Below are positions 34,258 to 37,050 of a stretch of DNA of 64,000 nt, piece after piece. How positions within the stretch are numbered: position 1 is the stretch's first letter; the number at the start of each line of letters is the position of its first letter. Both the position numbers and the translations under genes were made by a program. This stretch comes from Cyanidioschyzon merolae. Taxonomy: Eukaryota. The notes below the pieces were generated by a model. The model worked only from the letters and a program-made list of their open reading frames with translations, was not told the DNA's origin and did no database searches. The stretch lies in assembly GCA_000091205.1 (NCBI GenBank), contig AP006492.2; one strand, written 5' to 3'.

Positions 34258-34717
34258 TATCGGTGTTTTTGTACCCGGCGTTTTGCTCACCACGACCAGA
34301 TCGACGCCGAGATATCTCGGAGATCGGCCAGTCTACTGACACGATGCGAATGCCGCCGTTGAATGGAAACGCGATCCTGATCAGTAGCGTGTTGTTCTAC
34401 TGGAAAAATTGGATTTCCGTTAAGGTCTTAGCAGAGTACAGTTTTTTAGTTCATTTTTCTTTCAAACCTCAAACAAGTGTGTTCAAGTTTTTTTTCGCAG
34501 TATATAACAGAAGCGTTCACAGAGCGTTGTTTTTCAAAAAAAAAACTAAAAAAGGAAAGCTATGAGAAAGCAAGTCCACGATCCTGGAGGCCCAGGGTCG
34601 CCGGCTGCCAGAAAAAAACGAAAAACAGTGCCGAGTCCAGAAGAAAAGGGAGAGAAGAAGAACCGAAAGGGGGAGGCCCTACGTTGAAGGCTGCAACAAA
34701 GACGACTTTACGACGAG

Positions 34718-36976
34718 ATGGTGGTGAAAACCTTCCTTCTTAAACATATCAAGGATCCGTGCAAGGAAAAGTTGCGAGACGCTATCAAAAAACGTGTCGA
34801 CTCGTACTCCAAGAGTATTGTCAAGGCGTCGTCAGTACTGATGCATTTGGTGAGGGAGATGTATCGCGACGTGACGCACATGGAAACAGTCGAGATTCCT
34901 GACGATTTTTTCGACAAGACGTTTATTCGTCACCTGATGCTTGGCACAGCGGAAGCGCTGAAGGAAAATATGCTAGTGCACGCCCTCCACGAAAACTTGG
35001 TGGAATTCCGCTTCGAAGGTAATCGATACAGGGGTGCCTCGGATATTTAGGCATACGGAGCGAAAAAGTACATCACGAGTCTGAAGAACCATTTGACAGT
35101 GAACCTCGAACGTTTTATGATACGCGCGGTGGGTACACTCTACCCGGGCATCTTTCGCAACGGAAAATGGGCGATTATCAATGGCATCATGAAAGATCGA
35201 AAGTATGAAGTTGAGATCGAGTTTGTCGATAAGAAGGCGTCACGCAGGAGCGCAAATGAAGCTTCTGTAATCCGTGCGGCTATCCAAGAGTATCGTGCAG
35301 TCCTGGGGCTGGCGAATTTGGCAGAAAATTTATCAGAGTTGAAAAAAGATAAGGAAAGATACTACCGCCTCATCCTGTGATATTTCGTGTTTCTGGACCG
35401 AGAGCTCGAACGCGAAGCGGAGATGAAGCTGAGTGAAGAGACAAATCAAGAGTGGGAGAGACGGAAGGCTTTCCTAATGGGTAAGCGCTTCAACGGCGTT
35501 CCAATGTGCAATATCAAGTCACATTTCGTGACTATCGATTCAGGCGTCCTTTACGGCATCATGAGGGAGATCTGTCCGGAGTTCGATGTGAGCAGGGAGG
35601 ACTTCATCGGTGAAAACCGGGAGACGTACTGGAAGAGTATCTTCGATTTCAAACGTCTCAAAGTCAGCAAACAAAAGGTATTTACTGGGTTGATCGAAAC
35701 CGATGGAGTAGCCACGTGTGTACTCTATCGGCGGTTGAAGAAAGATCGTCCAGTTCCGCCCTCGGCCGCGCCCGTCACGAGGGATGCAGAAAACAAAGAG
35801 GAGGATTCTGTGATGCAGGAGGTGGAGGATACCGAGTTTGTCGTTGACGTGACGAAGGATGAAGAAAACAAAGAGGAGCATCCTGCTACGCAGGAGGTGG
35901 AGGATAACGACCTTGTCGTTGACGTGGCGAAGGATGAAGATGAGAAGAAGGCGGATCCTTCGGCGCAGGAGGTGGAGAATAACGACTTTATGGTTGACGC
36001 GGCGAAGCATGAAGAAAACAAGGAGGCGGGTCCTGCGACGCAGGAGGTGCAGGAGAACGACTTGGTCGTTGGCCTTGACCCTGGGAGCACGACCATCCTA
36101 GCCATTGCTGCACCCAAGCGTGCGGAAGACGGTACTGACGGCAAATTACGTCAGAAAGACATGCGTGTGTTCAAGCTCTCGAATGCGAGATATTACCGGG
36201 AATCGGGAACCATGAATGCGAGGAAGAAAATTGAGACTTGGAATTCAGGAATAAAAGAGCACCTGGAAGCTATGAGCGAGGTGACGAGCCGAGGAGCGGA
36301 CTTTCGAGCTTTTCGGAAATTCATGGAAGTTCGTGTTGCTCATTGGGAGGCGCTGTTGGAGGAGTATACAAAGCCCGTGTGAGCTCGTCTGTGTATGAAT
36401 CTGTATTGTGGAAAGCAGCGTGCATTCGCGAACTTTTTCCATGAGTTGAGCGCCTCGAAAGAGGACAAGACTCAAAGGCTCGTCGTAGCGCACAGAGCGG
36501 TGCACTGGATGACCCAAAAAGGGACTCCGCCAGCTCCAACGACGAGAACGTACAAGGAGTGTGCACGGCGTTTTGTTACAATACCTGCAGACGAGTTCCG
36601 AACATCTTATACACACCATGAGCTGGGTTGTAAACTTCAGAGGGTCGAGATGAAAATGTGCCAGCGGAGCCCTAAGGACATAGCAAAGTACGGACCGCTG
36701 ACGGAGGAGCTAATGGAAAGGAGGGCGAAAGTTCGTGGACTCTTTGCATTAGTAAGTGCAACCAGTGATGGCAAGAAACGTATGGAGTTTGTGAACCGCG
36801 ACTTTAATGCTGCCATCAATATAACGAGATATGCGGTGCTGGAGACGAGACCTCCAGAGCAGACAAGAGAGCTCTTTGTTGAACAGTCACTAAAAGTTGA
36901 ACTATATGAGAAGAAATGGGAAGCAGTAGTGGATGGCCGTTCGAAAAAGACGGGGAGGCGTCTGCATGTTAGTTAA
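34718..36976 (+). pseudogene. Fanzor (TnpB-like RNA-guided nuclease homolog) ORF in copy B. In-frame stops: TAG at 35048, TGA at 35378, TGA at 36380.
   Basis: The four ORF-track segments 34718..35050, 35093..35380, 35387..36382 and 36395..36976 are all in frame 2 and separated only by stop codons. The first stop corresponds to TAC (Tyr) in copy C. Confidence 0.75.
35785..36065 (+). repeat. 69-bp in-frame tandem repeat, 4 units. It encodes acidic 23-aa units ([25 protein letters not shown]) just upstream of RuvC-I in copy B.
   Basis: Repeated protein units are visible in the 35387..36382 translation. Copy C has one unit and copy D about two. Confidence 0.75.
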
Positions 36977-37050
36977 TGACGTCTGCACTAGGGCGGGTTT
37001 CGCCGCCTCTACACCGCCGGTGACACCGTTTTTCTTTTGAAAGACGTTTG
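36826..37050 (+). ncRNA. Candidate omega-RNA scaffold region. It spans the 3' end of the Fanzor ORF and the conserved non-coding right end, with hairpins GGCGG-GTTTCG-CCGCC and GACACCG...CGGTGTC-like.
   Basis: The 74 bp after the stop codon are conserved with copy C and partly with D and A. Conservation ends abruptly at 37050 (B) and 46709 (C), where the flanks differ. In OMEGA systems the omega-RNA is encoded at this position. Confidence 0.35.

Follow-up and report, generated by a model that had tools for sequence, protein, structure and literature searches.

A 64,000-nt stretch of Cyanidioschyzon merolae 10D chromosome 10 (the window) contains a dispersed repeat that a first-pass annotation, made from the DNA letters alone, described as a four-copy family of TnpB-like or Fanzor elements. 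The locus raises the question of what these repeats are, whether the protein they once encoded is a Fanzor with an intact catalytic site, and how such an element could have spread.

The window copies are decayed members of the CMe-1A family

Using self-BLAST and a repeat finder, we recovered the four annotated copies, with a unit of 2.5-3.1 kb and 72-87% mutual identity; copies B and C are 97% identical across one 1.05 kb stretch. The original count missed a fifth Fanzor1 relic (41882-42595, minus strand), a strongly decayed RuvC half with two family-HMM domains (E 1.5e-6 and 2.4e-6) that include ...HRDLTASNNIPKCFMLPERP... and ...KRIRLCGxKKRAFAYLFN.... The boundaries first given were nearly right, except that copy C extends ~600 bp further at its 5′ end. 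The eukaryotic context that had been proposed is confirmed, as the window is finished C. merolae chromosome 10 and eight flanking proteins are exact matches to the 10D chromosome 10 genes CMJ28x-CMJ30x. The flanks of the Fanzor1 copies are unrelated to one another, and no Rfam family matches any part of the window.

The family has been described as CMe-1A, with a 3169 bp consensus encoding the 734-aa protein CMe-1 and ~150 copies per 16.5 Mb genome that are ~3 kb long, ~80% identical to the consensus and without terminal inverted repeats (Bao & Jurka 2013, Mobile DNA 4:12; PMC3627910). Some of these copies remain intact, and the 5′ 635 bp of the element corresponds to the short element TE-N2_CMe (PMC3627910), of which we find solo copies at 8720-9285 and 24704-25286. 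All four window copies match the published consensus with 83-87% identity over 1.0-3.2 kb. They come from the same organism and the same family with no essential difference, the window holding individual decayed members, so that the finding is not new.

Copy A (550-1911, minus strand) retains only the 3′ 1.36 kb, the RuvC half, carries one frameshift and is cut by a LINE at 1911; it covers family-HMM positions 317-596, and its bases 1911-583 align by blastn to consensus positions 2040-3145 at 86.6%. The body of copy B occupies 34258-37066 on the plus strand, with its 5′ end adjoining the 5′ end of a LINE. It scores 515 bits to the family HMM (positions 4-596), and blastn aligns 34338-35849 to consensus 687-2193 at 85.5% and 35998-37046 to 2117-3169 at 87.4%. 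Its end at ~37066 was set by eye where the outer stem of the terminal hairpin stops, and the related locus L037 has the same bases beyond 37052. Copy C (46702-49830, minus strand) is a near-full-length canonical CMe-1A made up of a Fanzor body (46702-49208) and a 5′ TE-N2-like part (49215-49830), with one frameshift and an in-frame stop; 49830-46713 aligns to consensus 24-3169 at 83.7% over 3158 nt (blastn). Copy D (58385-61000, minus strand) has several frameshifts and a 5′ end that adjoins a 5′-truncated LINE, and its blastn matches are 60992-59451 to consensus 649-2196 (83.4%) and 59455-58409 to 2117-3162 (86.4%). The family HMM recovers copies A, C and D piecewise across frames.

All five copies within the window are broken by nonsense mutations, frameshifts or LINE truncation and are pseudogenes. 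The four units and the fifth fragment are almost certainly old, inactivated insertions of the Fanzor1-carrying element CMe-1A. Related metagenome loci (n = 71) are almost all broken as well; in L001 alone is the Fanzor frame both full-length and open, and its product is matched at 99% by L002.

Copy B preserves the outline of the CMe-1 protein

The CMe-1 frame of copy B runs from 34562 to 36976 on the plus strand and comprises 804 codons with no frameshift and four internal stops (TGA at 34685, TAG at 35048, TGA at 35378 and TGA at 36380). These in-frame stops had raised the suspicion of a trypanosomatid or of a genome with reassigned stop codons, which the exact C. merolae protein matches rule out. 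Aligned to the published 734-aa CMe-1 over 804 columns, a 75-aa repeat insertion among them, the copy B protein shows 72.5% identity. As first reported, the unit holds no second ORF; there is no room for one because the Fanzor frame takes 2.4 of ~2.75 kb.

Near the N-terminus lies a KKRK patch (34610-34624) that resembles a nuclear localisation signal, predicted from sequence only, which reads AARKKRKTVPSP in copy B and AAGKKRKTVPSP in the published consensus. Directly upstream of RuvC-I are four tandem 75-nt (25-aa) acidic repeats (35773-36072; repeat family D16) whose number differs from copy to copy and whose counterpart in the AlphaFold model (residues 384-469, pLDDT <50) is disordered. 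The RuvC-I strand VVGLDPGST with the catalytic Asp follows at 36065-36091, RLVVAHRAV occupies the canonical RuvC-II position at 36476-36502, with Arg replacing an invariant Gly in B and C, and ADEFRTS, at 36587-36607, has the catalytic Glu in its rearranged place, with the [TS][TS] motif directly after it. HHELGC is encoded at 36614-36631 and the RuvC-III motif FVNRDFNAAINI at 36788-36823. The motifs that the earlier reading had quoted from copy B (VVGLDPGST, RLVVAHRAV, HHELGC and the RuvC-III motif) all lie where it placed them.

Comparison of copy B with an intact relative gives a dN/dS of 0.42 for the whole protein and 0.27 for its RuvC third, values that point to past selection on the Fanzor1 protein. 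Such values below 1 between copies, together with the intact copies of the 2013 paper (PMC3627910), could suggest that the copies form a host gene family, whether domesticated or made up of ordinary paralogues, and are not mobile. We regard this as highly implausible, given that five of five window copies are broken in unrelated flanks, that the genome of 16.5 Mb holds ~150 copies (PMC3627910) and that, among the homologues found, the family is absent from the annotated NCBI proteome. A mobile element under past selection accounts better for the copies, and the following sections consider its protein.

Sequence profiles and predicted fold support membership in Fanzor1

Direct searches did not reveal the identity of the protein. 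OrfB_IS605, OrfB_Zn_ribbon and every other Pfam or NCBIfam TnpB model failed to match any copy or relative at threshold, the best direct match being PF07282 (OrfB_Zn_ribbon) with E=0.23, and the sole precomputed annotation for the family was a weak DUF8286. An 8-sequence profile of close relatives also found nothing in the PDB. These results were failures of sensitivity that a 103-sequence profile overcame: in hmmsearch against the PDB it matched Fanzor1 chains only (PpFz1 5e-23, SpuFz1 2e-17, GtFz1 8e-11). The family profile matches >2,600 representatives of clusters built at 50% identity.

The fold agrees with the profile. An AlphaFold2 model of a family protein reached pLDDT 84 and pTM 0.82 (with 9 sequences only, pLDDT was 38 and the model unusable), and the only significant Foldseek matches in the PDB were seven Fanzor1 cryo-EM chains (E 2e-16 to 6e-14), followed by Cas12 and TnpB. 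Profile, modelled fold and catalytic residues together support the assignment of the window copies to the Fanzor1 family. The first-pass annotation had proposed a TnpB-like or Fanzor protein and suggested both profile and structure searches; the Fanzor half of the profile search and the structure search bear it out, and the OrfB half does not.

A prokaryotic IS200/IS605 TnpB element, present by contamination or recent transfer, would be a different source for these genes, and their RuvC-III motif does resemble the TnpB consensus. This origin is next to impossible in our estimation: the window is a finished eukaryotic chromosome, no TnpB model matches, there is no TnpA, the N-terminal KKRK patch is present, and the best matches in both sequence and fold are to Fanzor1, with TnpB far behind (a weak Foldseek match with E 0.017, probability 1.00 and 269 columns). 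Judged by its sequence, CMe-1 is a homologue of prokaryotic IS200/IS605 TnpB and not a member of that group.

A probable rearranged catalytic site and a non-canonical zinc ribbon

The absence of an obvious RuvC-II Glu had been read as either a rearranged site or inactivation. We counted residue conservation over 103 family members (numbering D484, G623, E656, R724-D725-N727). In the RuvC-I motif GxDPG, the Asp (D484) is present in 102/103 relatives, the Pro in 96/103 and the Gly in 102/103, and copies A, B, C and D all retain the catalytic Asp. The canonical RuvC-II site has the consensus VVAYGxA with G623 in 103/103 relatives and no Glu. An invariant Glu, E656 in DEFRTS (103/103), lies 33 residues downstream of G623 and lines up with DEFRTS in PpFz1 and with DEYKTS in SpuFz1; the [TS][TS] after the Glu strand is T/S at both positions in 103/103 relatives. 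At RuvC-III, R724, D725 and N727 are each found in 100/103 relatives and A729, N731 and I732 in 97-99/103, and the NRD of the solved Fanzor1 proteins falls opposite this motif in the alignment.

Fanzors are known to have the RuvC-II Glu replaced by Pro or Gly with an alternative Glu ~30-45 residues downstream, and tested Fanzors with the same arrangement cleave DNA, an activity abolished by mutating the alternative Glu (PMC10530073). Of the two original readings, the conserved residues thus favour a rearranged Fanzor-type site and argue against inactivation. A RuvC-dead derivative, acting as an RNA-guided DNA binder or regulator rather than a nuclease, would account for the missing canonical RuvC-II Glu and for the additional loss of the invariant Gly in copies B and C. 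It is nevertheless very improbable with the alternative Glu present in every relative, both Asp near-invariant and the same arrangement active in tested Fanzors (PMC10530073). A rearranged nuclease site is the reading that we adopt.

The zinc-ribbon region fits the earlier description less well. The Cys/His zinc-finger block that had been proposed is not a canonical C4 ribbon, and its KECARRF part lies upstream. We found no CxxC...CxxC between [TS][TS] and RD among the 103 relatives; the pattern in Cyanidiales copies is HHx3C-x9-C, and across the wider clade only one Cys is left (76/103 relatives). The ribbon strands are still present in the AlphaFold model. On this comparison the zinc ribbon of CMe-1 is not canonical, and the authors who defined the C4 zinc-ribbon motif still list CMe-1 as a Fanzor1 (PMC3627910).

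The conserved 3′ end is a candidate guide-RNA scaffold

Beyond the protein, the 3′ ends of the copies share an RNA-like structure in which two small hairpins precede a long terminal one with many G·U pairs. A plain MAFFT alignment misaligned two variants of the hairpin, so that RNAalifold gave a single 4-bp stem, and a covariance model (R1) was used instead. R1 found 78 copies, every one of them at a gene end. Within the window it matches copy A at 550-657 (minus strand, 79 bits), copy B at 36952-37057 (plus strand, 41 bits, E 1.4e-8), where the structure is degraded, and copies C and D at 46702-46807 and 58385-58503 (both minus strand). The published CMe-1A consensus ends within the terminal hairpin (...GAAAGGCG), and the conserved hairpin is ~10-15 nt longer.

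In the R1 alignment 83.6% of cells are paired and both sides have changed in 17/25 pairs vs 10 +/- 1.9 in shuffled alignments (0/500 shuffles reach 17), pair counts that are inflated by the fitting of the alignment to the covariance model. The covariation score is 0.168 vs 0.03-0.07 for slid controls. At four positions G·U is more frequent than any other pair, and in 36/39 distinct copies folding favours the sense strand over its complement. Taken together, these features make the three-stem 3′ end a candidate fRNA/omegaRNA scaffold.

The 5′ end of the Fanzor body adjoins LINE and TE-N2 sequence

The 5′ end of the Fanzor body is a 22-nt stretch (consensus ATCGCGCTCGGTGAGCGCAC), and in copies B and D this end lies against a retroelement. 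Upstream of copy B is a frameshifted LINE-like retroelement (29969-34257, minus strand; RVT_1 E 1.7e-12, above the Pfam cut-off) that shares 96.6% identity with 1912-5223. The final ~280 nt of this LINE are the antisense counterpart of CMe-1A consensus 1-282 (consensus 84-282 matches 30082-30285), and the LINE separates copy B from a portion of the published 5′ region. Head-to-head with copy D stands a second piece of this LINE, its 3′ 1.27 kb (61003-62267, plus strand), 88.6% identical to 29969-31238 in inverted orientation, with consensus 86-282 matching 62151-61953. In both copies, consensus 84-282 of the published 5′ region lies beyond the inserted LINE, and LINE sequence takes the place of consensus positions 283 to ~650.

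At the same 5′ breakpoint, 42 classified junctions have five kinds of 5′ partner: the TE-N2 5′ end, the full-length LINE 5′ end, a LINE truncated at one fixed position, a LINE A-rich 3′ end in the opposite orientation, and a retroposon-free "X" leader. The left boundary of homology varies by subgroup, falling at position 59, at the 22-mer, at a 50-nt "X" leader or, in some copies, a further ~150 nt out. TE-N2 was not assigned to a class in 2013 (PMC3627910) and looks SINE-like, having a tail in common with the LINE. A statistical association of Fanzor1c with LINEs has been reported (Jiang et al. 2023, PMC10530073). It is a tentative and rather unlikely reading that the 5′ end of the Fanzor body is a specific non-LTR junction, with the spread of CMe-1A in Cyanidiales relying on the LINE machinery, in the form of a chimeric retroposon whose Fanzor is antisense, or with the LINE targeting this site. 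If true, it would be the first concrete mechanism for a transposase-less Fanzor1 family reaching ~150 copies.

CMe-1A might be a chimeric retroposon rather than a DNA transposon, consisting of an antisense Fanzor gene at the 5′ end of a LINE-derived tail (TE-N2 or LINE), with both copied together by the LINE reverse transcriptase. Several features point this way: TE-N2 has its outer ~200-280 nt in common with the 3′ end of an RT-encoding LINE that runs opposite to the Fanzor, the retroposon 5′ end is head-to-head with the Fanzor 5′ end in canonical, B-type and D-type copies, and the D-type junction is seen again where the genomic surroundings are unrelated, in window copy D as well as in L001/L002. 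The Fanzor1c association would also fit, as would the lack of terminal inverted repeats, where our search agrees with the first-pass annotation in finding none on the element. However, the commonest 5′ type, "X", has no retroposon sequence at all (~18/42 junctions, some of which are one locus seen in different metagenomes), and at five loci the LINE has the same orientation as the Fanzor with its A-rich 3′ end at the junction, which a chimera does not predict. A search by eye around copy C found no target-site duplications, and it is on the Fanzor-sense strand that the G·U-rich stems are conserved. We consider a chimeric retroposon quite improbable, and CMe-1A is treated below as a Fanzor1-carrying element in its own right.

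Possible mode of action and significance

An intact CMe-1A would encode a single protein, CMe-1, of ~734-800 aa. Its N-terminal part would have a basic nuclear-localisation patch followed by an alpha-helical REC/WED-like half, and its C-terminal part a variable linker of acidic 25-aa repeats followed by the RuvC nuclease, with a rearranged triad of the Asp in GxDPG, the Glu in DEFRTS and the Asp in NRDxNAAxNI, and Gly at the old RuvC-II site. As its guide, CMe-1 would bind an RNA whose template is the end of the CMe-1 gene and the ~100 nt beyond, including the three conserved stems, with a 3′ extension that would run into flanking DNA. The complex would then cut matching double-stranded DNA beside a short adjacent motif. 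We infer RNA binding, guide use and cleavage by homology with the tested Fanzor1 enzymes, and the way in which the element moves is likewise an inference.

As a discovery the locus carries little weight: the family and its host, along with the copy number and the TnpB/Fanzor nature, have been in print since 2013, and what Fanzor1 does biochemically was established in 2023-2024. The analysis shows that a Fanzor can be recognised by a reader from raw DNA without tools, and that current Pfam and NCBIfam models overlook this large Fanzor1 clade without a canonical zinc ribbon. With the R1 structure there is a candidate scaffold for the guide RNA, and the LINE/TE-N2 junction, which recurs, offers a clue to the spread of transposase-less Fanzor1 elements. 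P0001, the intact relative encoded at 6001-8259 of L001 from hot-spring red algae, is potentially a moderately heat-tolerant Fanzor.

Comparison with known systems

The closest systems of known structure are the solved Fanzor1 proteins SpuFz1 (8GKH, 9CEU-9CEZ), PpFz1 (9CF0-3) and GtFz1 (9CER-T). CMe-1 has only 12-16% sequence identity to them, yet the folds are alike, with a TM on target of 0.5-0.7 at the Foldseek E-values given above. They also share the rearranged RuvC triad, with the GxDPG, DE[FY][RK]TS and NRD motifs aligned, as well as a gene inside a mobile element and a structured RNA region at its 3′ side. CMe-1 differs in its acidic tandem-repeat linker, in a 20-aa insertion in the ribbon region and in lacking the CxxC...CxxxxC zinc ribbon of the solved proteins.

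Prokaryotic TnpB (ISDra2, 8H1J) and Cas12f have in common with CMe-1 the RuvC core and the RD..NAA..NI motif. The guide RNA of TnpB derives from the right end of its element. Unlike CMe-1, TnpB has a canonical RuvC-II Glu, about half the size, a TnpA partner and Pfam OrfB matches.

The reported Fanzor1c-LINE association (PMC10530073) offers the nearest parallel for the 5′ side of CMe-1A. That report does not describe junction anatomy of the CMe-1A kind, but in both cases a Fanzor1 gene adjoins non-LTR retroelement sequence.

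Copies of CMe-1A in the window

Self-comparison of the window identified a dispersed repeat at four sites: copy A at 583-1911 (-), copy B at ~34338-37052 (+), copy C at 46693-49208 (-) and copy D at 58396-60995 (-). Pairwise identity among the copies is 72-82%, except that B and C share 97% identity along one stretch of 1.05 kb. This bears out the four-copy family described in the first-pass annotation, and the motifs quoted there all lie at their reported positions, which confirms the observation; since copy B scores 515 bits against the family HMM, it is far beyond chance.

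A single Fanzor1 family, CMe-1A, was listed for C. merolae by Bao & Jurka (2013; PMC3627910), with ~150 copies at ~80% identity to a 3169-bp consensus encoding a 734-aa protein (CMe-1), no TIRs, TSDs that were not established, and some copies still intact. Over its 5′ 635 bp, CMe-1A shares 95% identity with TE-N2_CMe (TE-N2 below), a distinct element whose class was left open (PMC3627910). We aligned the consensus from the supplement of that paper to the window. Copy C matches consensus 24-3169 (49830-46713, 83.7%), copy B 687-3169 (34338-37046, 85-87%), copy D 649-3162 (60992-58409, 83-86%) and copy A 2040-3145 (1911-583, 86.6%), and two solo TE-N2 copies match consensus 4-562 (9285-8720, 77.6%) and 2-581 (25286-24704, 84.4%). 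Against CMe-1, the B protein shows 72.5% identity in an alignment that counts the 75 extra repeat residues of B. We therefore regard the finding as a correct rediscovery: the observation is real, its interpretation as a Fanzor/TnpB-like element is correct, and the copies are pseudogenes of a family already known from 2013.

The host context is plainly eukaryotic, as had been reported, with seven of the eight flanking ORFs looked up matching exactly annotated C. merolae strain 10D proteins encoded on an 839,707-bp contig. Flanking genes include CYP710, PABP and locus tags CMJ281C, CMJ300C and CMJ302C; the window genes lack introns and GC is ~55%. Copy D sits immediately upstream of a glycosyltransferase-92 gene, and the mechanical ORF call for this gene, 57196-58482 (-), overlaps the right end of copy D, which lies on the same strand, by ~100 nt; its true start is probably a downstream ATG.

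Decay of the copies and an open frame elsewhere

All window copies are dead, ordinary pseudogenes. Copy B retains a single frame of 804 codons (34562-36976) with zero frameshifts and four internal stops (three TGA and one TAG, at 34685, 35048, 35378 and 36380), and encodes Arg at the position of the otherwise invariant Gly623. The frames of A, C and D are broken into pieces and also carry stops: C has one frameshift and one stop, D has several frameshifts, and A ends at 1911 with its 5′ 1.4 kb missing. Copy B has four nonsense codons yet no indel across 2.4 kb, whereas the other three are frameshifted, a pattern that is possibly due to chance. A fifth Fanzor1 relic, absent from the first-pass annotation, lies at 41882-42595 (-). 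It consists of RuvC-half fragments (...LSRVRHHRESGTMDAS..., ...KKRAFAYLFN... and ...HRDLTASNNIPKCFMLPERP...; each HMM domain E ~1e-6), is full of stops, probably carries an internal deletion, and is much older than the four copies.

Comparison of B with the intact relative encoded at L001 gave a dN/dS of 0.42 overall and 0.27 in the RuvC third, so the protein was under selection while the family diversified. Among 71 related loci from hot-spring metagenomes (~75 copies examined), a Fanzor frame that is open over its full length occurs in L001 alone (6001-8259), and its called product of 752 aa (P0001) is a candidate for an activity test. The copy in L002 (773-3028) matches this product at 99%, and an ORF scan found no long open frame in it. 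At L013, an 801-aa ORF (4143-6548) begins within the last ~60 Fanzor codons (MERMSKVRGLLALVS...NRDFNAAINI...) and continues for ~700 codons into sequence downstream of the Fanzor copy.

Retroposon sequence at the 5′ end

LINE pieces directly adjoin three of the copies. A 4.3 kb, frameshifted LINE-like element (LINE below) encoding a reverse transcriptase (RVT_1, E 1.7e-12) lies at 29969-34257 (-) beside B, a second copy with 96.6% identity to it lies at 1912-5223 (-) beside A, and a 3′ 1.27 kb piece lies at 61003-62267 (+) beside D. The high identity of the two LINE copies makes them far younger than the Fanzor copies. The last ~280 nt of the LINE correspond to CMe-1A consensus 1-282 in antisense, which is outer TE-N2, and the LINE and TE-N2 share the end ...AAAYGYTTTGTC. 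From this outer homology of ~200-280 nt and the common end, TE-N2 looks like a short, SINE-like derivative of the LINE; in the CMe-1A consensus it runs opposite to Fanzor. TE-N2-related sequence occurs in the window as the solo copies (8720-9285 and 24704-25286) and at 49215-49830, 30082-30285 and 61953-62151.

In the window and in related loci (L001-L072), the Fanzor body starts at a common 22-mer, consensus ATCGCGCTCGGTGAGCGCAC, with a shared breakpoint directly before it; this region lies at 34294-34316 in B, ~49186-49215 in C and ~60976-61000 in D. We classified 42 junctions and found five kinds of sequence upstream of the 22-mer. Most common is a leader that contains the palindrome GGACACGTGTCC and no retroposon sequence. 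The others are antisense TE-N2, the canonical arrangement (copy C); a full-length LINE 5′ end, head-to-head (copy B, L003, L007 and L008); a LINE cut at one fixed position, also head-to-head (copy D, L001 and L002, at different genomic sites); and the A-rich 3′ end of the LINE in the same orientation as Fanzor (L013, L015, L019, L022 and L030). The locus with the open frame thus shares its LINE truncation with a decayed copy. The LINE may target this site, the Fanzor body may be captured into retroposon chimeras, or leaders may be shuffled by recombination. Association with LINEs was noted earlier for one Fanzor1 subclade (PMC10530073).

RNA-like structure at the 3′ end

The ~100 nt beyond the stop codon are conserved and form three hairpins, two small ones and a long terminal one (up to 19 bp) whose variants CGTCGTTCGA/TCGAACGGCG and ACAACGTTTT/AAAGGCGTTGT both keep pairing. 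A covariance model built from 11 copies found 78 copies, always at the gene 3′ end and including all four in the window. In the alignment, which was fitted to this model and hence inflates pair counts, 83.6% of cells are paired, and 17 of 25 pairs changed on both sides, compared to 10 ± 1.9 in shuffles (0 of 500 reach the observed value); the covariation score is 0.168, against 0.03-0.07 in slid controls. At four positions G·U occurs more often than any other pair, and of 39 distinct copies 36 fold better as the sense strand than as its complement, which favours an RNA of the Fanzor sense strand over a DNA hairpin. The structure matches that expected of the fRNA/omegaRNA scaffold, which abuts the right end in Fanzors (PMC10530073), and points to a candidate for it.

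The published consensus stops within the 3′ arm of the terminal hairpin, and pairing runs ~10-15 nt further (hairpin ends at B 37046-37066, C 46702-46713, D 58385-58409 and A 550-583), so the right end of CMe-1A is probably ~10-15 nt past the last published base. No TIRs were found in the window copies and no transposase within the CMe-1A unit, in agreement with the first-pass annotation. By analogy with 8GKH and PMC10530073, the protein of this multi-copy, dispersed element would bind RNA made from the 3′ end of its own gene, take its guide from the read-through flank, and cut double-stranded DNA beside a TAM.

Fold and catalytic residues of CMe-1

The Pfam search proposed at first pass, run together with NCBIfam, gave nothing significant for the copy B protein or the intact 752-aa relative (precomputed label, a weak DUF8286), and the clade, for which this label is the sole precomputed one, is invisible to Pfam TnpB models. 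A word-indexed search returned 36 relatives, every one metagenomic. An exhaustive profile search returned 2,651 cluster representatives, the best-scoring mostly of ~560-720 aa; at 50% identity the CMe-1 clade comprises >2,600, nearly all metagenomic. In an alignment of 103 sequences (A3; relatives P0035-P0184), the invariant or near-invariant residues are D484-P-G, G623 in VVAYG, E656 in DEFRTS and R724-D725-x-N727-A-A-x-N-I.

Searched against the whole PDB, the A3 profile matches exactly three sequences, all Fanzor1, from Parasitella parasitica (E 5e-23), Spizellomyces punctatus (E 2e-17) and Guillardia theta (E 8e-11), with the DPG, DE[FY][RK]TS and NRD motifs in register. An AlphaFold2 model using A3 is confident (pLDDT 84, pTM 0.82), and its only significant Foldseek matches in the PDB are seven Fanzor1 chains (E 2e-16 to 6e-14), followed at E >0.008 by Cas12i, other Cas12 proteins and TnpB. 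The element protein thus has a modelled Fanzor1 fold and, at family level, an intact catalytic triad. Disorder in the model is confined to the linker that joins the REC/WED half to RuvC-I. This linker is a tandem repeat of an acidic 25-aa (75-nt) unit, with ~4 units in B (35773-36072) and A (1530-1841), ~2 in D (59376-59535), ~1 in C (47682-47768) and one in the published consensus. A KKRK patch lies at the N-terminus.

The canonical RuvC-II Glu could not be placed at first pass, and a rearranged site was one suggestion. Fanzors have Pro or Gly at this site and a conserved Glu ~45 residues downstream, without which they do not cleave (PMC10530073). In CMe-1, 33 residues separate the Gly from the alternative Glu, and each is invariant in A3, an arrangement that explains the absence. 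The proposed zinc-finger block calls for revision: KECARRF falls outside it, before the Glu strand, and the ribbon region reads HHx3C-x9-C in Cyanidiales copies. With a single conserved Cys in the wider clade, the ribbon region is not a canonical C4, and in contrast to other Fanzor1 and TnpB proteins, the CMe-1 clade lacks the canonical C4 zinc ribbon.
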